Position numbers and translations under genes: made by a program | Shown here: in pieces, positions 7,961-58,711 of the stretch | Layout: every line of letters begins with the position of its first letter | Position numbering within the stretch: position 1 is the stretch's first letter | Source: an uncultured delta proteobacterium | GTDB lineage: Bacteria; Desulfobacterota; BSN033; UBA1163 | Direction: 5' to 3' | DNA length: 64,000 nucleotides | Assembly (NCBI GenBank): GCA_963827685.1 | Contig: CAWHBU010000001.1 | Coordinates: forward strand, 160,001 to 224,000 | The notes under the pieces: generated by a model | Databases searched by the model: none | What the model saw: only the letters and a program-made list of their open reading frames with translations | Told to the model about the DNA's origin: nothing

Positions 7961-8000
7961 TCACCCCCACCCTCACCCTCCCCCATCAAGGGGGAGGGGA
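7961..8000. repeat. C-rich/G-rich hairpin element
   Basis: CCCCCACCCTCACCCTCCCCC-atcaa-GGGGGAGGG. Confidence 0.75.
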
Positions 8001-14008: not shown

Positions 14009-15333
14009 CTTTTCTCCCTGCCCTGAATGCTACGTCGTTCAGGGTCCGTCCTCTTCTGAATCGATTGATAGTGTCCTTCCAATCCTTCCCACTCGGCAAA
14101 TCTCTTGACATCTTTCTCAAACCGCTCCAATGCACCTCGTGTAAAACTCAGCAGATTGGTCCTCTTGATAAAATCCTCCACCCCCAAGGGTGAAGAGAAC
14201 CGAGCTGTGCCGGCTGTGGGAAGAATATGGTTGGGCCCTGCCATATAATCTCCAATAGCCTCAGGCGCATAGGGGCCAAGAAAGACGGCACCTGCGTGTC
14301 GCACACTTTTTATTAGCGAGAGAGGTCTCGAAACAGCAAGCTCCAAATGCTCCGGAGCAATCCGGTTCACCCACTGCATTGCCTGCTCGAGATTTTTGAC
14401 AATCAGAATCGCACCTCTTCGATCCAGGCTTTCAGAGGCCACTTTCCTCCTTTTTAGAGAGGAAAGTTGTCTCTCCACTTCTTTCTTTACTTCCCTTCCG
14501 AATGCTTCAGAGCTGGTAATCAGAATGGCAAGCGCCATTTCATCATGCTCAGCCTGGGAGATGAGATCTGCTGCGACAAAGGAAGAAGGCGTGCTCTCAT
14601 CGGAGACGATCACAATCTCACTTGGCCCAGCCACCATATCGATATCTACCTCGCCGTAGACCAATCTCTTGGCCGCTGCCACATATTGATTTCCCGGTCC
14701 CACAATCTTGTCCACCTTGGAAATCGATTTCGTCCCATAGGCCAGAGCGGCAACAGCCTGAACGCCTCCTACCCGATAGATTCGATCCACCCCTGCCAAA
14801 TCCGCTGCGACCAGGACAGCAGGACTGATCCCCTCTTTCCGGGGGGGAGTCACCATGAGAATTTCCTGAACCCCCGCCACCTTCGCAGGGATGGCCGCCA
14901 TGAGAACGGTCGAAGGATAAGAGGCTTTTCCACCGGGAACATAGATGCCTACCCTCTCTAAGGGCCTCATCACCTGCTCAAGCCGAATCCCTCTCTCTCC
15001 TGCCTTCAATGATGGGATTAATCTCTTGCTCATAAGGTGATGAAACTTTTGAATCCGCTGGGTTGCCTTCTTGAGTGTTCCTAAAAAATCCCGAGGGACC
15101 CCTCTGTAAGCCTCTTTCACCTCGCTTCTCTTCACTTGGAGTTGATGGATCGGAATTCGTAAGCCGTCGAAGACTTGAGTGTAATGAACGAGAGCTTCAT
15201 CTCCTCGTTTTCTCACATCCTCCAATATGGAACGGACTTTCTTTTCGAACCGAAGGCTATTCCGAGCCATTCTTCCTTCCACCTCGGAGAGGTATCTCTC
15301 AAATCCTTTTTCTCCAGCTCGAAAAACTCTCAC
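14005..15333 (-). CDS. hisD: Histidinol dehydrogenase
   Basis: [48 protein letters not shown]. Confidence 0.98.
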
Positions 15334-16592
15334 TCTTCTCCCTCTTTCACCCTTTTAATATTCGCTCCGAGGTTGGCCAATTTTTTGTCCAGTCCCTCAT
15401 ACCCTCGGTCTAAGTGATAGACTCTGGAGACCTCCGTCACACCCTCTGAAGCCAATCCGGCCAGAACGAGGGAGGCACTGGCTCTTAAATCACTCGCCAT
15501 CACCGGTGCTCCACTTAAGCTTTCCACACCCTGAATGATGGCTGAATCGCCTTGGATGCGAATATCGGCTCCCATTCTTCTCAGTTCGCTCACATGGATA
15601 AATCGATTTTCGAAGATGGTTTCGGAAATGACACTCAACCCTTTTGCCATGGACATCAAGACCATGAACTGGGCCTGCATATCCGTTGGGAATCCAGGAT
15701 AAGGTTGCGTCTTGACATCCACGCTCCGAATTCTTTTCGTACCCACCGCCCTGACCCCGTCTCCCTCGGACTCAATCTCCATGCCCGATTCTCTTAATTT
15801 GTGGACAACCATTTCCATTTCAGAAAGAGGACAATGGAGAATCTTTATATTTCCGCGCGTCAGTCCAGCTGCCACCATCAACGTCCCGGCCTCGATCCGA
15901 TCCGGAGTGATCGTATGCTCAACGGCATGAAGCGATTTCACCCCTTCGATCTCGATCACATTCGTCCCTGCACCACTGATCTTTGCCCCCATTTTATTCA
16001 GGACATTTGCTAAGTCAACCACCTCGGGCTCCATGGCAGCATTCTGCAAAGTGGTCTTTCCTTTAGCAAGCGTCGCGGCGATCATCAGATTCTCTGTCCC
16101 AGTAACGGTGACGGTGTCAAAGGAGATATTCGCTCCCCTCAACACGTCGGCCTTTGCCTCGATGTATCCATGACGGAGTTCGATCTTCGCTCCCATGGCC
16201 TCAAGACCCATGAGGTGGAGATTGATCGGCCGTGCGCCAATGGCACATCCTCCTGGAAGAGAAACGGTAGCTCTCTTCATACGAGCCACCAAAGGGCCTA
16301 AGACGAGAATAGATGCCCTCATGGTCTTCACCAAATCATAGGGGGCCTCATCACTGGAGACCTCTGTGGCATTGATCTGATAAACCCCTCCATCCTCCGA
16401 TACTTTTACTCCGAGATTTTTAAGGACCTTGATGATGGTCTGGACGTCCCGCAGGTTCGGAACATTATGGAATCGATTGTCTCCTTCGCTCAGGAGACAG
16501 GAGGCGAAGATCGGAAGGGTGGCGTTCTTTGAGCCGCTCACCCCCACTTCGCCAATTAACCTTTCCCCTCCTCGTATGACGATTTTATCCAT
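15330..16592 (-). CDS. murA: UDP-N-acetylglucosamine 1-carboxyvinyltransferase
   Basis: [41 protein letters not shown]. Confidence 0.99.
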
Positions 16593-17622
16593 TCTTCGCT
16601 CCGTTAAATCCCCCCTTCCCCCCTTTACTAAAGGGGGGAGATGCGGGGATTTTCTGTGCCTTCACGACTCTTTCTGTGCCAGATAAGTCTGGCAGAATTT
16701 GTGGCCTTAGAAAAGCTCCACTGCTCTCGATTTGTTTCGCGACCATTTCGGCCTGGCCCTGACCCACTTCCATCAGGAGCCATCCTCCTCCTCGCAGAGA
16801 GGAAGGAGCTTGAGAGATGAGGCGCCTGTAAAATTCTAATCCGTCCTCTCCTCCATCCAAAGCGATGACGGGTTCATAATCCCTCACCTCTTTAGCCAAA
16901 GACCCGATCTCGGACCGTATAATATAGGGAGGATTAGAAAGAATAAGATCGAAACCCTCTCTCTCTTTTGAAGAGTGAAAGGGATCCAAGAGATCGCCAT
17001 TCACAAATTCTATCTGATGCTGGACGCCCGCCGATTCAGCATTCTCCTTTGCCAAGACAAGAGCGTCTCTTGAGATATCGGTAGCTACCAGAAATATATT
17101 TTTCACCTCTTTCGCCAAGGCGATAGCAATCGCACCGCTTCCCGTCCCTATTTCGAGAACAGATGGGACTCCGCCCAAAGAATTTTCTGAGAGGATCAAC
17201 TCTTCGGCTCTCGCCGCCTTGCAGGCTGCAGTTTGCTCAGAGTTGATACTGAGTGGTACTATTGACCCCGCCTTTACGGGCGGAGTTTGGTACTGTCGAA
17301 GTATCAAGAGGCTTTGTTCAACCAGAAGCTCTGTTTCCGGTCTTGGAATGAGGACCCGAGGGTCCACCTTAAAACCGATCGACCAAAACTCCTGATGTTT
17401 TAAAATGTATTGAAGAGGTTCTCCCGAAATTCTTCTTTGGATCATCTTCTCCAGGGTCTCTCTCTCCCTTTCCTTGAGTGAGCTATGGAAATTCCTATAG
17501 AGCCCTTCTCTGCTGAGATTCAAAGAACGGGCCAGAAGAAGTTCTGCATCCAGCCGAGGACTTTGAATCTGATGATCCTTCAAACGATTCGTCGACCAAT
17601 TGAGGAGTTCTAAAACCGTCAT
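16585..17622 (-). CDS. prmC: Release-factor glutamine methyltransferase with a 36-aa in-frame repeat insertion
   Basis: [39 protein letters not shown]; downstream of prfA. Confidence 0.96.
16606..16652. repeat. C-rich/G-rich hairpin forming the prmC C-terminal codons
   Basis: AAATCCCC..TCCCCCCTTT-act-AAAGGGGGGA..GGGGATTT, translated as [16 protein letters not shown]. Confidence 0.8.
17195..17307. repeat. 108-bp nested palindromic insertion inside prmC
   Basis: Flanked by ATCAA direct repeats (17195-17199 and 17303-17307); several internal hairpins. Confidence 0.85.
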
Positions 17623-17637
17623 TCTTAAACCATTCTT

Positions 17638-17801
17638 CCAAGTGTCAAAGTTCGCACCAAGTGATGAACCGAAGGTGAATCAAGCCCCAATAAAACCCAG
17701 AGTCCCAATGCCAAAAATTGGGTTCCGAATAAATGCATTTTTGAAATCTAAAGTTTGAACTTTGAGCTTCATTTGGCATTTGAGCTTTGAAATTTGGAAT
17801 T
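17638..17801. repeat. Heptamer-periodic inverted element overlapping the prfA stop
   Basis: Right arm TTTGAAC TTTGAGC ..TTTGGCA TTTGAGC TTTGAAA TTTGGAA; degenerate left arm. Confidence 0.75.
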
Positions 17802-18869
17802 CTCCAATTCTCCTTTCAATATATCTGCTTGATAATGTGTGGTCAATGCATCGATGATCTCCTCGATTTCTCCCTCAAGGATAGATTCCAGTCGATAAAG
17901 GGTCAATCCGATCCGGTGATCAGTCACTCTCCCTTGGGGAAAGTTATAGGTCCGGATGCGTTCGCTTCGTTCTCCTGTCCCCACCTGGTTTCTTCTCTTT
18001 TCCGAAATCTCCGTCTGTTTCTCTTGCTGGGCTTTATCCATTAGCCTCGCCCGAAGGATTTTAAGGGCTTTGGCCTTATTTTTGTGCTGCGACTTTTCAT
18101 CCTGACAGGACACCACGATTCCCGTGGGGAGATGGGTAATCCGCACAGCGGAGTCTGTGGTGTTGACGCTCTGACCTCCCGGTCCCGATGATCTGAAGAT
18201 ATCAATTCGCACATCATTGGCATCGATCTGAACATCCACCTCTTCTGCCTCTGGAAGGATAGCCACGGTCACCGTGGAGGTATGAATACGGCCTTGAGAT
18301 TCTGTGACGGGAACTCTTTGAACCCGGTGGACGCCACTCTCAAATTTCAGTCGACTGTAGACCCCTTTCCCCTCAATCAGGGCGATCATCTCTTTGAACC
18401 CTCCCACACCCGTATAGTGGCGACTCAATATCTCCATGCGCCAGCCTCGTTTTTCAGCAAACTTGGAATACATCCTGAAGAGATCTCCTGCGAAAAGCCC
18501 TGCTTCCTCTCCTCCAGTTCCTGCACGGATTTCAAGCAAGATGTTTTTTTCGTCATAAGGATCTTTGGGGAGAAGCGCCATTTTTAACTCCTCCTCGACC
18601 TTTTCCTTCTGCTGGTTCAACCGATTGACTTCCTCTTTGGCCAACCGTTTCATTTCTTCATCTTCTTCGTTATCAAGGAGGTGCTGGCTTCCTTTGATCT
18701 CCTCTTCCAATTTTTTAAGCCTTCGGTAAAGGTCGACCACCTTTCCCAGTTCGGCATACTCTTTGGCAGCCTTCTGAAATTCATCCTGTTTCGTGATCAA
18801 CTCGGGTTGGCCGAGGAGGTAGGAGAGTGTCTCGTACCGATGCTCGACCTCTTCTAATTTCTCAAACAT
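17769..18869 (-). CDS. prfA: Peptide chain release factor 1
   Basis: [11 protein letters not shown] anticodon-mimic motif, [12 protein letters not shown]; start MFEKL. Confidence 0.99.
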
Positions 18870-18884
18870 CTCTTTCCCCTTCAA

Positions 18885-18990
18885 ACAATGACAAATGTCA
18901 AAATCCAAAGTTCAAATGAATGTCCAATGGCCTTAATGTCAAAATTTCTTTTTTGGTAAATTTTGTTATTTGAGCTTTGAAATTTGACAT
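18885..18990. repeat. Heptamer-periodic inverted element upstream of prfA
   Basis: CAATGAC AAATGTC AAAATCC AAAGTTC ... TTTGAGC TTTGAAA TTTGACA. Confidence 0.8.
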
Positions 18991-33607: not shown

Positions 33608-35028
33608 ACAGAGGCTCCTCAGACAGCTCTTCAAGAAAAACCCCACTTGATCAAGAAGAGACGATTGCAGCCATTTCAACTCCATTTGGAGAGAGCGGCA
33701 TTGGCATCGTCCGTATCAGCGGCTCTTTGGCCGAGCCTATTGGTAAGAGATTATTCAAGCCTAGAAAAGACCAACCCTATTTTGTTTCCCATCACCTCCA
33801 CTATGGGGAAATCATCGACCCCCAAAGTGGAAATCCTGTTGATGAAGTGTTGATTGTCCTGATGAAATATCCAAAGACTTATACAAAAGAAGATATTTTA
33901 GAAATACACTGCCACGGAGGATACTTCGTTTTGCAAAAGGTATTGGAGTTAGTATTGAGGGAAGGAGCTCGGATGGCCAATCCGGGCGAATTCACGAAGA
34001 GGGCGTTTCTAAACGGGAGAATTGACCTCACCCAGGCTGAGGCTGTGATTGATCTGATTAAGGCAAAGACTCAAATCAACCTTGAGATTGCCACCCAGCA
34101 ACTGAGAGGACGGCTATTCAGCGAGATGACCGATCTCAAAGAGAGATTGATCGAGTATCTTGCCATGATAGAAGCTCATATCGATTTTCCAGAAGAAGAG
34201 ATGGAGCCGATCACTTTTGGAGAGATGACAAAAGACCTGGAAGACATGGTCCATCAAATAGAGGAATGGATCAACTCGTATGAAGAGGGAAGGATTTTTC
34301 GTGAAGGAATCTCGTGTGCGATCGTGGGGAAGACCAATGTTGGTAAATCGAGCCTTCTCAATGTGTTGTTGAAAGAGGAAAGAGCCATTGTGACTCCAAT
34401 CCCAGGGACGACCCGGGATGTGATTGAGGAGGTCCTGAATGTTCATGGAATTCCGGTGCGTCTGATGGATACGGCAGGTTTGAGAAAACCCGCGGATTCC
34501 ATTGAAAAAGAAGGGGTGAGAAGGGCAAAAGAGCGGGTGGCTGACTCTGATTTAGTTCTGTTAATGCTTGATGGAAGTCGGGAACTTGATGGGGATGATT
34601 CGGAAATTTTCAGAGAAGTAAACGGAAAGAAGAGGGTGGTAATCATCAACAAGAGTGATCTACTTCTAAGAATATCCTTAGAAGAAGTGAAGAATCGATT
34701 CGAGAATGACCCGATCGTCCTAATCAGCGCTCTGAAAAATGAAGGGATCGATGATCTGAAACAGGCCATTTATGCCTTCTTGGTTCACAGAGATGTGAGG
34801 GCAACGCCAGAGCATCTGATCGTGGTGAACATACGCCACAAAACCGCTCTTACTCAGGCCAGGAATAATCTTTCCAGTGCAATGAAGGGACTGGAAGAGG
34901 GGGCTTCGCTTGAATTTATCGCCTTTGAAATTCGCTCTGTATTGGAAGCCCTGGGAGATTTGGTTGGAGAAACAGCCACCGAAGAGGTACTAAATCGAAT
35001 CTTCGAACAATTCTGTATCGGCAAGTAA
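33604..35028 (+). CDS. mnmE: tRNA modification GTPase
   Basis: TIAAISTP, GEFTKRAFLNG, GKTNVGKSS, GTTRD, DTAG, FCIGK. Confidence 0.99.
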   Translation: MNRGSSDSSSRKTPLDQEETIAAISTPFGESGIGIVRISGSLAEPIGKRLFKPRKDQPYFVSHHLHYGEIIDPQSGNPVDEVLIVLMKYPKTYTKEDILEIHCHGGYFVLQKVLELVLREGARMANPGEFTKRAFLNGRIDLTQAEAVIDLIKAKTQINLEIATQQLRGRLFSEMTDLKERLIEYLAMIEAHIDFPEEEMEPITFGEMTKDLEDMVHQIEEWINSYEEGRIFREGISCAIVGKTNVGKSSLLNVLLKEERAIVTPIPGTTRDVIEEVLNVHGIPVRLMDTAGLRKPADSIEKEGVRRAKERVADSDLVLLMLDGSRELDGDDSEIFREVNGKKRVVIINKSDLLLRISLEEVKNRFENDPIVLISALKNEGIDDLKQAIYAFLVHRDVRATPEHLIVVNIRHKTALTQARNNLSSAMKGLEEGASLEFIAFEIRSVLEALGDLVGETATEEVLNRIFEQFCIGK

Positions 35029-35044
35029 TGTTTCACGTGAAACA
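35029..35044. promoter_or_regulatory. parS site
   Basis: Perfect palindrome TGTTTCACGTGAAACA near the origin. Confidence 0.95.
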
Positions 35045-35112
35045 TACCACCTTTTTACGTCGAGGAATTGTCGTTATTGACAGAAATGGCTGATGCCTGA
35101 AGGGTTCCTAAA

Positions 35113-35655
35113 ATGATTACGATTCAACCCGAGAGGAGGGAGGATTATGCTGCCATTCATGAGATCAATGTTCTTGCCCTCGGCCAGGCGAACGAAGCAA
35201 GGTTGGTGAAGCATCTTAGGAAATCTTCTATTTTTATCTCAGGTCTTTCCCTGGTTGCCCTTACTGAAAATAGGGTGGGTGGTCATATTCTCTTTACGCC
35301 CATAGCCATCCAGACCAAAGGTGGATCTGTTCCAGGCTTGGCTCTTGCACCCATGGCAGTTCATCCGGAAATCCAAAACCAAGGTATTGGTTCGAAACTT
35401 GTAAGGGAAGGCGTAGAGTTATGCAAAAAATATAGGCATGGCATAGTGATTGTTGTAGGCCGCCCGCAATTCTATTCACGTTTTGGGTTCACCCTTGCAA
35501 GAGCAAAAGGGCTTGAAGTTCCATCCCCTGTTCCAGATGAGGTCTTTATGGTTCTCGAGCTTGTTCCAGGTGCTTTGAATGGTTCCATAGGAATGGATTA
35601 TTTATCCTCCAGAATTCTTAGATGTTTAGGAAGAAGTGAGAGTAGAGATTTTTGA
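35113..35655 (+). CDS. YhbS-like GNAT acetyltransferase, probably frameshifted near the C-terminus
   Basis: GHILF, LAPMAVHP, QNQGIGSKL, YSRFGF; the family-like end IIYPPEFLDV* lies in another frame (stop 35629). Confidence 0.85.
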   Translation: MITIQPERREDYAAIHEINVLALGQANEARLVKHLRKSSIFISGLSLVALTENRVGGHILFTPIAIQTKGGSVPGLALAPMAVHPEIQNQGIGSKLVREGVELCKKYRHGIVIVVGRPQFYSRFGFTLARAKGLEVPSPVPDEVFMVLELVPGALNGSIGMDYLSSRILRCLGRSESRDF

Positions 35656-36998
35656 TCATGTTTCACGTGAAACATATAGCCCCCAACATCCTCCTTATCA
35701 ACCCCTGGATCACGGATTTTGCAGCTTATGATTTGTGGATAAGACCTCTTGGCCTCCTCAATATTGCCAGTCTTTCAAGGATGAATGGATTTCGAGTTAC
35801 GCTGATCGATTGTTTGGATTACTCAGTAAAAACAAAAAGGTACACCGATGGGAAGTTTTATAAGACTAAGATTGAGAAACCTTTTTCACTTAAATCTATT
35901 CCACGAAATTATAGCCGATATGGAATTCCTGAGGAAATGCTGTTGAAAAAGCTCTCATTCCTTGAAGAACCAGATCTCATTTGTGTTACTTCAGGAAGGA
36001 CTTACTGGTATCCAGGAGTATTCAAAGTAATTGAAATAGCAAGAAAATTATTTGTGGACGCCCCAATGATTCTGGGAGGGATCTATGCGACACTCTGTTA
36101 CGAGCATGCAAAAAAACACTCGGGCGTGGATATTGTGTTCAATGGAAGAGGGAAGCTTGAGGTTTTAAAGTTAATTTCAGATCTTTTAGGTTTCAAAATT
36201 GGGTTATCTGAATTCCGCAATTCGCAATCCGCAATCCGCAGTGAAAATTACCCCGCCTTCGACCTTTATCCCCAGCTTAATTATGCTTGTATTTCTACTT
36301 CCAAAGGATGCCCATTGAAGTGTACCTATTGTGCCTCTCCATTTTTAACGAAGGGTTTTTTCAGAACGGATCCTTTAAAAGTAGTTGAAGAGATTGAATA
36401 CTGGACAAGTAAACATCAAGTAAATGATGTTGCCTTCTATGATGATGCCCTTCTCATCGAGCCATCAAGACATATTATTCCAATTTTGAAAGAGATAACT
36501 AAAAGGAGCATTCACTGTAATTTCCATACGCCCAATGGTCTTCATATTAAGGAGATTGATGAAGAGGTTGCAAGCCTTCTATTCCGCACCGGGTTCAAAA
36601 CCATTCGTTTTGGTTTTGAAAGCTCGAATGAAGCGACACAGCTTGAAACCGGAGGTAAGGTCGACAATCAGGAATTTCGGCGAGCGATCAAACATTTAAA
36701 GAGGGCAGGGTATTCAGGGGAAGAAATTGGGGTATATATAATGGTGGGACTACCGGGCCAAAGCGTAGGGGAGGCGGAAGAGAGCATTGCCTTTGTAAGG
36801 GAAACGGGAGCGAGACCCATGCTGGTTGAATATTCGCCCATTCCTCATACGCCATTATTTGAAAAAGCAAAGAGAATGTCTTCATTTGATCTTGAAAAAG
36901 AACCCTTATTTCATAACAATTCTATTCTACCCTGCCGGTGGGATGGGTTTACAATGGCAGATTATAGAAGGTTAAAGGAAGAATTGAATAGAGGATAA
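35652..36998 (+). CDS. B12-binding-domain radical SAM protein
   Basis: ILLINPW, PLGLL, ILGGIYA, CPLKCTYC, FYDD, GFES; start uncertain. Confidence 0.9.
   Translation: MIMFHVKHIAPNILLINPWITDFAAYDLWIRPLGLLNIASLSRMNGFRVTLIDCLDYSVKTKRYTDGKFYKTKIEKPFSLKSIPRNYSRYGIPEEMLLKKLSFLEEPDLICVTSGRTYWYPGVFKVIEIARKLFVDAPMILGGIYATLCYEHAKKHSGVDIVFNGRGKLEVLKLISDLLGFKIGLSEFRNSQSAIRSENYPAFDLYPQLNYACISTSKGCPLKCTYCASPFLTKGFFRTDPLKVVEEIEYWTSKHQVNDVAFYDDALLIEPSRHIIPILKEITKRSIHCNFHTPNGLHIKEIDEEVASLLFRTGFKTIRFGFESSNEATQLETGGKVDNQEFRRAIKHLKRAGYSGEEIGVYIMVGLPGQSVGEAEESIAFVRETGARPMLVEYSPIPHTPLFEKAKRMSSFDLEKEPLFHNNSILPCRWDGFTMADYRRLKEELNRG
35659..35674. promoter_or_regulatory. parS site
   Basis: Perfect TGTTTCACGTGAAACA. 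Confidence 0.95.
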
Positions 36999-48875: not shown

Positions 48876-49406
48876 TTATACGGGGATCTTTTCAGGTATT
48901 CCAATCTTAAACGTTTCCCACTCAATAAAGAACGCCCCGTTTTCCAATCTTGTTGGCAATGTATCAAGAGGACGAGGAGCCGGACCTCGCAGCACTTTGC
49001 CATCGATCGAGAAGACACTTTCGTGGCAAGGGCAGATGAATTCTTGCGTCTCAGGATGCCAGTCATACCTGCAGCCGAGATGGGGGCAGATTGGGGAAAA
49101 TATGGTCACCTCTGATGAGGAATGCTTGATCGCCCAGACATCGCGTAAGATCTTTTCCCGGATGACCATATCCACCTTTTGGTCAGTCCAGGATAACTTT
49201 ATTGGCTGACCCACAGGCAATGAGCCAATTTCAGCCACTTTGGCCCAGTCCGATTTTTTCATTCGGAATAGAGGTCCAACCAAAGTGCCGACAAGTGGAA
49301 TCCCCAATGTTAGGGCAACAAGGGAACCCAGCGCCCCAGTAAAAAGCTTCAGAAAACCTCGTCGAGTGTTTCCTCCATGTTCAACTGATTGCATCTCGTT
49401 CGTCAC
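48876..49406 (-). CDS. Rieske 2Fe-2S subunit of a cytochrome bc complex
   Basis: Tat motif TRRGFLK, CPHLGC, CPCH, GPAPRPL. Confidence 0.95.
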   Translation of the reverse strand: MTNEMQSVEHGGNTRRGFLKLFTGALGSLVALTLGIPLVGTLVGPLFRMKKSDWAKVAEIGSLPVGQPIKLSWTDQKVDMVIREKILRDVWAIKHSSSEVTIFSPICPHLGCRYDWHPETQEFICPCHESVFSIDGKVLRGPAPRPLDTLPTRLENGAFFIEWETFKIGIPEKIPV

Positions 49407-49467: not shown

Positions 49468-51447
49468 TCAAGCGTTTTTCTTCCTTGACAGCCCAATTCC
49501 AAGTCCCCCAAACACGATCGCAAAGGCTGCCAAGACCAGCCAGAAAAAGAGTTTCGGGGAGATTCCAGGATGAACCAACTGGGCCCGATTGACGCCGTTC
49601 AACTTCAGAACGTACGCTTCAACATTAGCCATTTGAGCTTGCGTCAACGTGTCGTCATCTCCGAAGGGCAGCATGTACAGCTGGGGATTCGGACCCGCGG
49701 GTATCGAACCGTGCTGGATGAGCCGATCAATGTTGTCGGCAAAGGTCTGTGCGTTTTTGCTAAAGAAGTCACGGTCGATAGGGTTGAGGGGTGGCACTCT
49801 GCCATCATCAGAACCAGGGTTCGGAACTTTATCGGTGCCTTGTGATCCGTGGCATGCTTCACAAACATTCTTGAATGTCACCGCACCGAGGTCGGCATTG
49901 CCAATGATAGAAGCTGCTTGCTCTGGAAGGCCATGGGGACCAATCTGTTCCTTCCCCGAAGCAGCCAGGACTCCGGCCTTAGGATGAGTCGCCCTCATTT
50001 TCGCCCTACCCAGAATCTGTGGGAGCGCTCCAGATCGAGGGGAGGGTGATGGAGCCTTTCCAGACTTGCCTTCAGGTTCCAGAGTGAGCAGATAATCGAC
50101 GAGATCATTCACTTGTTGGTTACTGGCCGAGGAGAAAGCGGGCATGATGGTTTTGGGGTCGTTTTTTTTGGGATTCCGGATCTGCGTCGTAAGCCACTCA
50201 CGTGTTCTGCCTTTCAGCACTCCGGAAGAGAGGTCAGGTGCTATTGTACCACCTGTGCCGTAAACCCGATGACATGCAATACACCCAAGGGTGTGGAAGA
50301 GCTGAGCACCCCGCTGCGCACTTGCTGACAGCAGAGTCGATTGAGTCGATGGGACAGGTGTCAGAAAATTGGTTTTTACTCCACCCCCTGAGTCAGCTCC
50401 TGGTTTGCTATAGTACCCGAGGATACCCAGGGTGATCACCCAGATAACAAAAACCAGATAGCCCCCCATGGCAACAGGCCGGCGGGCTGGGTTTCGCTCG
50501 GGATTTCGATCGAGAAAAGGTAGAAGCACGAGAAGTGAGATAACGAACAGTGGAATCCCTATCGTTCCGACCGGTTCAAATCTTCCATGGAAGGCTTTCA
50601 GGGATTGATAAAAAAAGAGGAAGAACCACTCTGGTTTCGGAGCGTAGGAAGTAGTCGTTAAATCCAAAGGGCCGGCAAAGGATGGAAGAATGTATGCAGA
50701 CAGTCCAACTAAAATGACGAAAATGGATGTGATGATCAAGGCATCTTTGAATACTTGATCCGGCCAGAATTGTCCAATACGGTTGCGTTTGGCTTCATCC
50801 CAGGGGCCGGCAATGCCGAAATTACGGAAGGCGATCAGGTGGACGCCGATCAATGCCAGTAAGAGGACTGGTAAAATGGCTACGTGAAGCACGAAGAAGC
50901 GGGAGAGCGTCAATTGGCCCATTTCTGCACCCCCCCGGAGAAGTTTTTCGACCAGTCCTCCAACAAATGGCGCTGTGCCTGCCATACTTGTGCCCACTTC
51001 GGCCTCCCAATAGCCCTTTTGATCCCATGGTAAAACTGGCCCTGTGAATCCCAAGGCTAAAGTCAAGAGCAATAGACCCACGCCAATTAACCAGGTGAGT
51101 TGGCGAGGCTGCTTGTAGGCTCCCCATATGAAGACACGAGACAGATGGAGTCCTATGAGGATGATCATCGCGTTGGCTCCCCAGCGGTGAAGGCCGTGAA
51201 TAAGCCACCCGAAAGGCACCTCTAAGCGCAGATAACTGAGACTATCATAGGCGTGATCCGTAGTCGGGACAAAGTAAAACAGCTGCCATATCCCCGTGAT
51301 GACCTGCAACAGAAAAGTGATCAGGACGGAACTGCCGAAGATATAAGCAAAGCTCGCCCCTCCAGGCATTTCTTCTTCAAGGCTCCAACGAATAACAGCG
51401 TTAAGGGGCCAGCGATCGTTGATCCAACGGATGATTTGTGAAGGCAT
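49468..51447 (-). CDS. Cytochrome b fused to two c-type heme domains
   Basis: GLHRWGAN, HLSRVF, LPWDQ, RFFVLH, PEWFF; CIACH and CEACH; C-terminal TM segment. Confidence 0.92.
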   Translation of the reverse strand: MPSQIIRWINDRWPLNAVIRWSLEEEMPGGASFAYIFGSSVLITFLLQVITGIWQLFYFVPTTDHAYDSLSYLRLEVPFGWLIHGLHRWGANAMIILIGLHLSRVFIWGAYKQPRQLTWLIGVGLLLLTLALGFTGPVLPWDQKGYWEAEVGTSMAGTAPFVGGLVEKLLRGGAEMGQLTLSRFFVLHVAILPVLLLALIGVHLIAFRNFGIAGPWDEAKRNRIGQFWPDQVFKDALIITSIFVILVGLSAYILPSFAGPLDLTTTSYAPKPEWFFLFFYQSLKAFHGRFEPVGTIGIPLFVISLLVLLPFLDRNPERNPARRPVAMGGYLVFVIWVITLGILGYYSKPGADSGGGVKTNFLTPVPSTQSTLLSASAQRGAQLFHTLGCIACHRVYGTGGTIAPDLSSGVLKGRTREWLTTQIRNPKKNDPKTIMPAFSSASNQQVNDLVDYLLTLEPEGKSGKAPSPSPRSGALPQILGRAKMRATHPKAGVLAASGKEQIGPHGLPEQAASIIGNADLGAVTFKNVCEACHGSQGTDKVPNPGSDDGRVPPLNPIDRDFFSKNAQTFADNIDRLIQHGSIPAGPNPQLYMLPFGDDDTLTQAQMANVEAYVLKLNGVNRAQLVHPGISPKLFFWLVLAAFAIVFGGLGIGLSRKKNA

Positions 51448-51542
51448 ACGTGGTTTTCCTCTAAAAAAGATTTTTGCCATGCCATGAGAACTCTGCAATG
51501 GCATTGTTCAGGCAGGAGGAGCTAAGAATTTACTATGAGGTA

Positions 51543-56153: not shown

Positions 56154-57146
56154 CTAATAATAATTTTCTTTTCCAACTTTACCTCTGAAAACGATGTAGC
56201 TATAAACCGTATACCCTAATACCAAGGGCAAAACAATAATCACTCCCCAAAGGGTGAAGCGCAGGGTTTCTTGTTGTGCCGCCGCTTCCCGAAAGGTGAT
56301 GCTGGGAGGGACGGCATAAGGGTAAATGGAGGCGATGAGACCGAGATATCCCGCGAAGTAAAAGATGACGCTGGAAAAAAAGGGCAGGATCTCACGCCGG
56401 GCTTTCAGGCTTTTGATAAGTGTATAGAAGGCTGCGAGGCCCAGCATGGGGAAGGTCCAGATAAAATAGATTCTGGGTGGACTAAGCCAATTTTTCAAAG
56501 CCGAAGGATAGTGGAAAGGTGTCCAAATGGTAACCAAGATTTGGAATCCCAACACAATAAATGCCGTCCAGAGGGCGCAACGATAGGCCCGTTCTTGGAT
56601 CGCTCCGCTGGTTTTAATGATGAGATAGGTGGACCCCAGGAGGATGTAGCCAGCAATCAATGCAAGGCTCACCATCATTGAGAAAGGGTTCATCCAGTCG
56701 AAGGGGCCACCTGCGAATTGACTTCCTACCACCTTCATTCCAGAAAGAATGCCGCCAAGGGTCAAACCCTGAGCGATCACAGCAACCAGACTTCCGAAGA
56801 AGAAAGCCATATTCCAAGGTCCTTTTCGAGTTGCATTCGCCCGGAACTCAAAGGTCACACCACGAAAGATCAGGCCGAAGACGAAGGTGAGAAGAGGGAT
56901 GTAAAGGCCGCTGAAAAGAACGCCATAGATCATAGGAAAGGCGACAAAAAGGGCTCCTCCGCCAAATACCAACCAGGTCTGATTCGCATCCCATACCGGG
57001 GCAATGCTCCCCATCAATATATCTCGTTCTTCCTCGTCCCGGGCGGCTGGAAACAACATGGCTATCCCCAGGCTGAAACCATCAAGGAGGATGTAGAGGA
57101 TGATGGCCAGAGCTAACAAGCAAGACCATATGACGATGAGATCCAT
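56154..57146 (-). CDS. cydB: Cytochrome bd oxidase subunit II
   Basis: LDGFSLG, PVWDANQTWLV, FRGVTFEFR, YSYIVFRGKV. Confidence 0.96.
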   Translation of the reverse strand: MDLIVIWSCLLALAIILYILLDGFSLGIAMLFPAARDEEERDILMGSIAPVWDANQTWLVFGGGALFVAFPMIYGVLFSGLYIPLLTFVFGLIFRGVTFEFRANATRKGPWNMAFFFGSLVAVIAQGLTLGGILSGMKVVGSQFAGGPFDWMNPFSMMVSLALIAGYILLGSTYLIIKTSGAIQERAYRCALWTAFIVLGFQILVTIWTPFHYPSALKNWLSPPRIYFIWTFPMLGLAAFYTLIKSLKARREILPFFSSVIFYFAGYLGLIASIYPYAVPPSITFREAAAQQETLRFTLWGVIIVLPLVLGYTVYSYIVFRGKVGKENYY

Positions 57147-57179
57147 ACTTTACCTTTGCAAGAACAGTCTCTTGATTTG

Positions 57180-57315
57180 AAATTACAAATTCCAAGTTCC
57201 AAATCCCAAATAAGGTCCAAACGCTAATTTCAAATGGCCGAAACGATTTCGTTTGAGATTCAAAATTTTGGTCATTGGGATTTGTTTGTTATTTGGTGCT
57301 TGGGATTTGGTGCTT
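57180..57315. repeat. 136-bp heptamer-periodic element (copy C) overlapping the cydA stop
   Basis: Gap-free alignment with copies A and B. Confidence 0.9.
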
Positions 57316-58711
57316 TACTTAACTCTGCTTCCATTTTGCCCTTGACCTCTTGAAGGGGGCGCATGCCTGCCGGTAGCTGAACGGGTGGAATGGGGCTGGC
57401 GAGATCCGGCCCCCGCGACAATGTCTTGAGGACGTAATAAAAATAGCTTGCCCCAACGACTGGGAAGATGATCAGAAAGAGGCTCAAAGACCAGATGACA
57501 TTCCCTTCTGGAATCGGAGAAACACCTTCAGCTGTTCGCATGAGATGATAGACCAGCCATGGCTGCCGGCCCACCTCATTGGTCACCCAGCCCAGCTCGG
57601 TGGCGATAAAACCCAGGGGGTGGAGAATCAAGAGGGTTCTCAGGAATGGACGGTGGTCATAGAGATGCCCCCGTCGCCACAGAACTGCAGCCCAAACCAT
57701 AACAAAGAAAAGGATGAACCCGATCGCCACCATCAACCTGAAGCTCCAGAATAGGATGAAGACATTAGGACGATCGTTCCGTGGAAACTCCTTAAGCCCC
57801 GGGACTCGACCATCAAAAGAATGGGTCACCAGCAGGCTAAGACCATTGGGAATATTCATCTCAAAGAGATTCTTCTCTGCTTTCATCTCTGGAAGGGCGA
57901 CAACTGCAAATGAGGCTCCTCCCTCTGTATTGGTTTCCCAATGAGCTTCCATGGCTGCCAATTTTGCCGGTTCATGATCGAAGACTTGACGGCCGCTCAC
58001 ATCACCCAGATAAATCTGAAGGGGTGCGAAAAAGGAGGCCATCACTAAGGAGATGGCTAAAGAGCGTCGGAAAACGGCCGTCTGTTTCTCTTTCAGAAGA
58101 TAGTAAGCACTGATTCCGGCTACGACGAAAGCAGATGTCTCAAAAGAAGCCATCGTCATGTGACCCATTCGGGCAAACACGGAAGGGTTGAAGATGGCGG
58201 CTGAGAAATCGGTGACCATAAACTTTCCGTTCACGAGTTTGTAGCCGGCCGGGGTATGCATCCAGGAGTTCCCAGCCAGAATCCAGAAGGCAGAGAGGAT
58301 GGATCCCAGTGCCACCAGGCAGGTTGCAAGAAAATGGATGCTACGACGGACCCTTTCCCAGCCGAAGAGCATGATGCCGAGGAAACCGGCCTCCAGGAAG
58401 AAGGCGGTCATGACCTCAAAACCCAAGAGAGGAGAAAAGACGTTGCTCACCATTTGGGAAAAACGAGAGAAATTGGTACCGAATTCGAACTCCAACACAA
58501 TCCCGGAGACTACTCCCACTCCGAAATTGATGGCGAAGATCTTCACCCAGAAGCGGTACATCCGGTAATAGATCTCCTGCTTCGTCATTAACCAAAGAAG
58601 TTCCACGACTACCAGGTAGAGGGCGAGGCCAATCGTCAACACCGGAAACAGAATGTGGAACATGGTGGTTACAGCAAACTGAATTCGAGAGAGAAAAACG
58701 ACATCCATCAC
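57272..58711 (-). CDS. cydA: Cytochrome bd oxidase subunit I
   Basis: SRIQFA..FHILF, FGTN, FFLEAGF, PAKLAAMEAHW, EVGRQPW. Confidence 0.97.
   Translation of the reverse strand: MMDVVFLSRIQFAVTTMFHILFPVLTIGLALYLVVVELLWLMTKQEIYYRMYRFWVKIFAINFGVGVVSGIVLEFEFGTNFSRFSQMVSNVFSPLLGFEVMTAFFLEAGFLGIMLFGWERVRRSIHFLATCLVALGSILSAFWILAGNSWMHTPAGYKLVNGKFMVTDFSAAIFNPSVFARMGHMTMASFETSAFVVAGISAYYLLKEKQTAVFRRSLAISLVMASFFAPLQIYLGDVSGRQVFDHEPAKLAAMEAHWETNTEGGASFAVVALPEMKAEKNLFEMNIPNGLSLLVTHSFDGRVPGLKEFPRNDRPNVFILFWSFRLMVAIGFILFFVMVWAAVLWRRGHLYDHRPFLRTLLILHPLGFIATELGWVTNEVGRQPWLVYHLMRTAEGVSPIPEGNVIWSLSLFLIIFPVVGASYFYYVLKTLSRGPDLASPIPPVQLPAGMRPLQEVKGKMEAELSKAPNPKHQITNKSQ

Follow-up and report, generated by a model that had tools for sequence, protein, structure and literature searches.

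The prmC gene and its surroundings

The stretch of DNA analysed here (64 kb, hereafter the window) carries housekeeping, origin-proximal genes, namely dnaA, dnaN, gyrB, gyrA, rho, his genes, recA, alaS, yidC and mnmE. A gene for a release factor N5-glutamine methyltransferase, prmC, is predicted on the minus strand (16585..17622; an ORF of 345 aa), with prfA (17769-18908) as one neighbour and murA (15330-16592), whose start it overlaps by 8 nt, as the other. Indeed, (i) the product of this ORF matches the Pfam families PrmC_N (PF17827; 4.5e-21) and MTS (PF05175; 6.6e-14), (ii) it matches NCBIfam TIGR03534 with 266.8 bits for a cutoff of 199.1, the match being in two stretches, and (iii) the SAM-binding motif G159-T-G-S-G163 and the catalytic motif N230-P-P-Y233 are both intact in this protein (P0001). 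In alignments of 34 and of 120 homologues, the residues G159, G161 and G163 and the motif N230-P-P-Y233 are invariant, whereas T160 and S162 vary little or not at all. On the basis of the family cutoff and of these motifs, the host gene is assigned to the PrmC / HemK release-factor glutamine methyltransferases.

No Rfam family was found at gathering score anywhere in the 64-kb window, and a tRNA scan of the window was also empty. The promoter and terminator scan gave no site within the prmC insert described below and no terminator-like site over positions 16400-17900. Furthermore, no transposase was detected among the 50 ORFs of the window in the NCBIfam screen.

A nested palindrome, separate from the insert, is located on the minus strand at 16606..16652, just upstream of the murA start, where it codes for the variable C-terminal tail of PrmC, a tail which is present in some relatives and absent from others. 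Its RNA fold (-33.5 kcal/mol, z -3.29) was matched by none of 200 shuffles. The similarity between the insert and this palindrome is marginal (18/500 shuffles in direct and 43/500 in inverted orientation); a kinship of the two was therefore not retained, and the palindrome is reported as context. The insert shows no similarity to two other C-run hairpins of the window. Over the whole window, 32 hairpins were counted, nested ones included, versus 7-22 in 10 simulations, which is not striking.

Borders, coding and symmetry of the insert

A segment of 108 nt (36 codons) in prmC, located on the minus strand at 17200..17307, corresponds to a 36-residue gap in relatives. Its placement slides by a 5-nt repeat, so that 17195-17302 is equally valid. 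A preliminary description of this locus had reported an insertion translated in frame, and most of what it said on borders and frame is borne out here: the coding-strand sequence that it quoted at 17195-17307 is exact; the TTGAT direct repeats do lie 108 bp apart, with copies at 17303-17307 and 17195-17199; the insert is open in the prmC frame, without a stop across 36 codons, and thus adds 36 aa in frame; its excision restores the reading EQSLLILSE..., which is that of 117 of the 120 closest PrmC proteins; and its position is the variable linker just before the SAM-binding GTGSG motif. The 5' copy of TTGAT (17303..17307, minus strand) codes for the first LIL of a LIL...LIL duplication in P0001-P0003 and belongs to a longer resemblance, in which TTGATACTT matches TTGATCCTC at the other end at 7/9 positions. 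The 3' copy (17195..17199, minus strand) could be a target-site duplication or a microhomology junction. A chance origin of the 5-nt junction identity (7/9 when extended) is unlikely, and the TTGAT pair would fit a target-site duplication and a repair microhomology equally well.

The PrmC relatives compared were the best 120 of 8000 scored (62-100% identity), and a smaller alignment comprised 34 proteins. Three of these 120 proteins carry the insert, namely P0001 (encoded in the window), P0002 (84% identical) and P0003; the other 117 have at most 3 residues in the insert columns and pass ungapped from EQSL to LILSE. Likewise, a clean 36-residue gap is present in 31 of the 34 close PrmC proteins, and the HemK protein of Thermotoga, for which a structure has been solved, is aligned by HMMER as two separate segments (query 22-113 and 151-306), the interval having no aligned counterpart. 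Because 117 of the 120 relatives read ungapped, the insertion is derived and lineage-specific. P0003 has 13 additional residues (PSAGLRTLSLSKC), placed one codon past the boundary of the two 54-nt halves described below, for a total of 49; the site has therefore changed length in frame at least twice. A shorter intermediate insert, including one of 18 residues, was not found in any of the 120 closest PrmC proteins. The insert adjoins residues 145-152, which are the least conserved run of eight residues in the 120-sequence alignment (majority fraction of 0.56 versus 0.85 overall), and its GC content is 0.537 versus 0.48 in the rest of prmC.

Translation of the insert as 36 extra residues is suggested by several features of the sequences. 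Three independent protein clusters have it open, in lengths of 108 and 147 nt that each amount to whole codons without a stop; among the six reading frames, only the prmC frame and one antisense frame are open through the P0001 insert. Its residues are identical at 33/36 positions between P0001 and P0002 and at 30/36 between P0001 and P0003, versus approximately 84% and 80% for the whole protein, and the insert peptide is thus conserved no less than PrmC as a whole. Removal at the RNA level, which the preliminary description had left as an alternative, is at odds with the two stop-free lengths in multiples of three and with a peptide conserved like the rest of the protein. Structure predictions made with 34 and then 120 close homologues reached a mean pLDDT of 49.2 and 58.9, respectively, with values below 50 in the insert region, at which the loop is unplaceable. 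By the general geometry of Rossmann folds, the N-terminal end of strand beta-1 would point away from the side that binds SAM and the substrate.

The insert is richer in inverted repeats than expected by chance. It contains five inverted 7-mers, a count attained by 2 of 2000 dinucleotide shuffles, and its longest inverted repeat, of 9 nt, was equalled in 19 of 2000. Its RNA fold (-38.7 kcal/mol, z -2.25) and its DNA fold (z -2.42) were each as good in 3 of 200 shuffles. The strongest palindromic feature is the outer one, in which the central dyad AGTATCAACTCT (17239..17250, minus strand), complementary to both insert ends (TTGATACT, 8/8; AGAGTTGAT, 9/9), pairs with either end, rather than one end with the other; the terminal inverted repeat is itself weak (CTTCGAC / GCCGAAG, 6/7, offset by one base). 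Hairpin 1 (17265..17286, minus strand) is composed of ACTCCGCC / cgtaaa / GGCGGGGT and has 8 pairs, namely five perfect pairs, one T.G and two further pairs; it is lengthened in the fold by GTAC/GTAC pairing between the self-complementary cores of the two AGTACCA copies (17288-17294 and 17254-17260). The hairpin 2 region, CTGCAGCCTGCAAGGCGGCGAG (17210..17231, minus strand), is weak, with one internal mismatch (GCAGCC/GGCGGC), and its full stem is not picked by the energy model, the fold taking just a 4-bp GCCU/AGGC stem. The dyad symmetry of the insert is genuine but moderate. The double-hairpin palindrome of the preliminary description can thus be kept as regards an inverted-repeat content above chance, with the outer feature as the strongest, but not as regards two well-formed inner hairpins, hairpin 1 being imperfect and hairpin 2 weak. 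Similarly, the 7-bp AGTACCA repeat is present, but lies within chance expectation (a direct repeat this long or longer arises in 326 of 2000 shuffles).

The insert can also be divided into two half-units of 54 nt on the minus strand: half-unit 1 (17254..17307) holds hairpin 1 and both AGTACCA copies, and half-unit 2 (17200..17253) holds the central dyad and the weak hairpin 2. The halves are related in register, a feature absent from the preliminary description, with 24/54 identical positions (44%), a value attained by 8 of 5000 shuffles. They code for QTPPVKAG (half 1) and QTAACKAA (half 2); P0002 and P0003 have QTPAC in half 2, which is closer to the QTPPV of half 1. The growth of the insert by three successive layers in situ, as proposed in the preliminary description, finds no support in these data. 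Indeed, the AGTACCA period is 34 nt, which is not a multiple of three, so this repeat cannot be the trace of a step of its own that kept a functional gene in frame; the intermediate that it implies is a frameshifting insert of 74 nt, and none of the 120 alleles is an intermediate.

Distribution among alleles and search for further copies

In a tree of 52 PrmC proteins, from which the insert columns were left out, the three insert carriers lie apart, and P0002 is sister to the insert-free P0007 (94% identity). A single clade of carriers is rejected by the AU test (p=0.0054, lnL difference of 62), and the starred branches of the PrmC tree force at least two presence/absence changes. By itself, this non-monophyly is compatible with several gains or with exact excisions, a pattern expected of a mobile element. 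Empty alleles could have arisen by precise loss between the direct repeats.

The similarity of P0001 to other alleles changes along the protein. P0001 and P0009 differ at 4/108 N-terminal sites versus 48/192 later sites (Fisher 8.5e-7), and P0001 and P0025 differ at 25/108 sites versus 5/124 (1.8e-5). P0001 and P0002 are mutually nearest or second-nearest only in the segments flanking the insert, segments so conserved that nearest-neighbour ranks there rest on differences of one residue. The differences between P0002 and P0007 near the insert (4/21 in 17/309 sites; 430 of 20000 draws) were considered as proof of a recombination tract and set aside, as they are confounded by the hypervariable loop. 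The prmC alleles are clear recombination mosaics, and homologous recombination of a short insert-bearing tract is the simplest account of the patchy distribution; with mosaic alleles, repeated insertion is not required for the carriers to be scattered.

The search for further copies of the insert was carried out at the DNA level in the same genome over the 64-kb window, in which blastn with 7-nt words gave no second copy (next best E=2.2) and nhmmer, run with the entire insert as well as with a profile built from its halves, gave a next best match at E=0.85. The cores of hairpin 1 and hairpin 2, with up to 3 mismatches, are each unique in the window. At the protein level, (i) a 33-aa sense peptide searched with phmmer against 1.84 billion cluster representatives had no match at E<=0.001, (ii) a 40-aa sense peptide searched in 5.8 billion protein clusters returned only P0001-P0003 among 8 word-sharing candidates, (iii) the peptide of the open antisense frame gave 63 candidates, none of them at E<=10, and (iv) residues 106-147 had no usable match in the ESM Atlas. 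A consensus pattern of the two hairpin cores, a degenerate core of 24 nt that has to be matched exactly, was scanned over 185,579 species genomes and gave 9 single-match loci in unrelated taxa, without similarity past the pattern; by our own estimate, chance would give about as many. The locus of the window, which would match the pattern twice, is absent from these 9 loci, which places its source genome outside that collection. Plasmids gave 3 matches, all at E=1, and phages gave none. In a crude screen for split family matches, 40 of the 50 window ORFs had an NCBIfam match and the top family was split in 2 of these 40, of which only PrmC was above the cutoff; the screen gives no sign of a genome riddled with comparable inserts.

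In the data searched, the insert is single-copy. The analogy that the preliminary description drew to Rickettsia palindromic elements (RPEs), a multi-copy family of in-frame elements, is thus not supported, no second copy having been detected in the window, protein, species-genome, plasmid or phage searches. The same description would have been contradicted by a segment conserved in distant PrmC proteins together with layers lacking other genomic copies; the layers have no other detectable copies, but distant PrmC proteins do not share the segment.

Possible origins of the insert

The reading to which we give somewhat better than even chances is that imperfectly palindromic DNA was inserted long ago, in one event, into the loop of PrmC that varies most, and has since been translated, tolerated and shuffled by recombination. 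This DNA, approximately 103-108 bp made of two diverged 54-nt half-units, would have entered prmC at a TTGAT that lies between the methyltransferase domain's first helix and strand beta-1 (VLEIGTGSG), leaving or using a 5-bp direct repeat at the junction. The site borders the loop that varies most and, by general fold geometry, would be placed at the N-terminal end of beta-1, off the SAM/substrate side, so that an in-frame insert could be tolerated there. It would afterwards have become an ordinary part of the gene, diverging at about the rate of the rest of the protein, with a later in-frame change of length at least once (49 residues in P0003), and homologous recombination would have passed it among diverged alleles, giving the patchy distribution. 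The DNA may have come from a small MITE/REP-like palindrome or from filler DNA copied from elsewhere during microhomology repair. We infer the translation, the single origin, the mode of origin and the tolerance of the insert from the comparisons above; the reading as an active element and that as three nested in-place insertions are not supported.

A copy of a non-autonomous MITE- or RPE-like palindromic element, inserted with a 5-bp TTGAT target duplication and repeatedly gained and precisely excised, the extra residues of P0003 being a nested insertion, is possible but doubtful. Such an element would account for a TTGAT direct repeat exactly at the borders, for the imperfect terminal inverted repeat, the internal hairpins and the significant inverted-repeat content, for the frames open in sense and in one antisense direction, for a length variant at the identical site (P0003) and for the higher GC content of the insert (0.537, versus 0.48 for the remaining gene). 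It would also account for the conflict between presence/absence and the gene tree (AU p=0.0054), although the mosaic alleles suffice for this patchiness. RPEs insert in frame into protein genes, according to a review (PMC10969869), and the prmC insert is like them in being short palindromic DNA in frame in a housekeeping gene, with an extra peptide in a tolerant region. RPEs, however, are approximately 150 bp long and form families with tens of copies per genome and a conserved peptide in many unrelated proteins, whereas the prmC insert, in frame and open as it is, has its peptide only in PrmC of three clusters, and neither a second DNA copy nor its peptide in unrelated proteins was found in the data searched. 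With bacterial MITEs that make in-frame fusions (ERIC, BOX and others; PMC10969869), it shares the size class, the flanking direct repeat, the hairpin potential and an ORF through the element, but its terminal inverted repeat is of 6/7 nt and slightly offset, it is richer in GC than the host gene, and no partner transposase or family was found for it in the window data. Neither multiple copies nor a parent IS with matching ends was found in the window, the 185,579 genomes, plasmids or phages. Since some MITE families are down to a single copy per genome, as noted in PMC10969869, membership in the RPEs or in-frame MITEs is nevertheless possible. Weighing against a mobile element are the blastn and nhmmer searches of the 64 kb, which gave no second copy, the absence of either open-frame peptide from other proteins (5.8 billion clusters, with no match among 1.84 billion representatives), the mere 9 chance-level matches in 185,579 genomes with nothing in plasmids or phages, the lack of a transposase in the window and a split-family screen without comparable inserts.

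An origin in place by replication errors is unlikely. In this case, slippage or template switching would have inserted about 54 nt in frame, a tandem duplication would have brought the insert to 108 nt, and divergence would have followed, the hairpins being made or kept by intra-strand template switching. The relationship of the halves in register (24/54; 8 of 5000 shuffles) would be so explained, as would the frame kept at each step, 54 nt being whole codons, and the QTPAC of P0002 and P0003 in half 2, nearer to the QTPPV of half 1; template switching is described as a source of new hairpins (PMC8794818). The halves are, however, only 44% identical, the 18-residue intermediate occurs in none of the 120 alleles, and no significant direct or inverted similarity links the insert to the 200-300 nt on either side, so the first unit was presumably not copied from nearby. 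Indeed, the local alignments of the insert with the 200-nt flanks in both orientations were attained by 300, 275, 139 and 16 of 300 shuffles (four tests, uncorrected), and direct matches of at least 7 nt with the 300-nt flanks were not found. The longest exact match is of 9 nt (ACTCCGCCC, inverted, 18 nt downstream; 78 of 300 shuffles), and local duplication or template switching from the flanks was accordingly discarded.

It is very improbable that the segment is absent from the mature protein, whether through ribosomal bypassing between the matched TTG-AT codons or through removal from the RNA. Mitochondrial byps are programmed translational bypassing elements. As in the programmed bypassing of phage T4 gene 60, matched codons border a hairpin-forming segment in prmC, and the identical TTGAT borders could act as take-off and landing sites, with a hairpin after the first; the insert differs in having no stop at the take-off, in being open and in being a multiple of three in both variants. 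Mobile bypassing elements have been described (bioRxiv 10.1101/2022.08.31.505936; PMC5462505), but no stop codon is present in or just after the presumed take-off site, both length variants are open multiples of three and the peptide has stayed as conserved as the remaining PrmC sequence. A programmed bypass element was thus rejected on account of the missing in-frame stop, in spite of the matched TTG-AT, and RNA removal finds no counterpart among the Rfam families, intron or other, none of which matches in the window. Finally, an assembly or chimera artefact of the metagenomic contig is scarcely credible: P0001 is a mosaic whose similarity partner switches close to the insert, as a chimera might do, but the insert is present in three separate clusters on different contigs (P0002 with 4 member sequences, P0003 with 2 contigs), and the three carriers differ by residue changes and by the 13-residue length variant.

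Palindromic elements that colonise housekeeping genes in frame have been well documented mainly from Rickettsia. A bolder and improbable reading is that the insert is one copy of a new family of small palindromic mobile elements with units of approximately 54 nt, in an uncultivated bacterial lineage; the family would insert in frame into core genes and grow stepwise (from 36 to 49 residues), a process comparable to that of RPEs but outside Rickettsia; the palindrome at 16606-16652 would be a second trace of this family, and gain and precise loss would be real. If further copies exist, a second, unrelated lineage would bear on the question of selfish DNA supplying new protein segments. If the insert is an orphan, it would show, as an ordinary case, that 36-49 extra residues are tolerated between the helix and strand beta-1 of a class I methyltransferase, and it would be a marker moved among strains by recombination, with possible use as a strain marker for the lineage.

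Two further types of sequence were compared with the insert. With REP and BIME sequences, it has in common a GC-rich stem-loop core of 20-40 nt and two units side by side. According to PMC3733652, REPs are extragenic, high-copy and mostly tagged by GTAG or CGTC at one end, whereas the insert is intragenic and single-copy and has no GTAG, CTAC, CGTC or GACG in 113 nt. An identity with REP/BIME was rejected on these grounds (intragenic, single-copy, untagged). Lineage-specific in-frame indels in conserved proteins are known as signature indels, and the insert resembles these in that, within a narrow lineage, a surface loop of a conserved enzyme differs cleanly and in frame in its length. It differs from them in its unusual length and in having a junction repeat and a dyad symmetry above chance, features which point to a specific insertion event rather than to gradual growth of the loop.

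Mosaic structure of the PrmC alleles

At the protein level, the PrmC alleles of the clade to which the window's own protein (P0001) belongs are strong recombination mosaics; besides P0001, the proteins concerned are P0009, P0025, P0002 and P0007. P0001 is near-identical to P0009 in its first part (residues 1-149) and to P0025 in a later one (residues 153-276), and outside these stretches it differs from each of them by about 25%. At the N-terminal end, an extension of approximately 38 residues (MFKCQGSTS...) is predicted in a subgroup of PrmC relatives with a length of 327-331 aa (P0037, P0047, P0052, P0081, P0085 and others), and is absent from the window's PrmC and from most other relatives; it could be genuine, or a product of alternative start calls.

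A nested palindrome at the 3' end of prmC

The 3' end of prmC contains a nested palindrome (16606-16652, minus strand), with outer arms AAATCCCC/GGGGATTT and inner arms TCCCCCCTTTA/TAAAGGGGGGA, and the start codon of murA lies 14 nt past its end. The predicted RNA fold of this segment has a z-score of -3.29, and none of 200 shuffled sequences folded equally well. The palindrome encodes the C-terminal 11-residue tail of PrmC. In the homologue alignment, P0001, P0002 and P0004-P0008 carry this tail and a few other homologues have part of it; many close relatives lack it, their proteins ending after KAQ(K/R). The palindrome looks like an intergenic hairpin that has been taken into the ORF. Its similarity to the 108-nt in-frame insertion within prmC is only marginal, being matched by 18 of 500 shuffles.

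Other palindromic elements in the window

A 19-nt repeat, perfectly palindromic over its initial 18 nt (ATGTTTCACGTGAAACAT), occurs in two identical copies spaced 630 nt apart. One is located at the mnmE stop (35028-35046), and the other where a B12-binding radical SAM ORF starts (35658-35676). The two copies flank a 180-aa ORF (35113-35655), for which no NCBIfam family was matched. This pair may be a paired operator, or may mark where a small inserted cassette begins and ends.

Furthermore, C-run/G-run hairpins are found directly downstream of two minus-strand ORFs, namely alaS (318-346; CTATCCCCTCCC..GGGAGGGGATAG) and pgpA (7976-7998; CCCTCCCCC..GGGGGAGGG). Each is probably a terminator of the kind typically used in this genome.

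Cytochrome genes

In a 678-aa fusion ORF (49468-51504, minus strand), the N-terminal part (residues 22-234) resembles cytochrome b6 and is joined to SoxX-like c-type cytochrome domains (residues 408-475). The ORF is adjoined by a Rieske protein gene (48876-49406), and cytochrome bd-like oxidase genes are encoded farther along (56154-58711).
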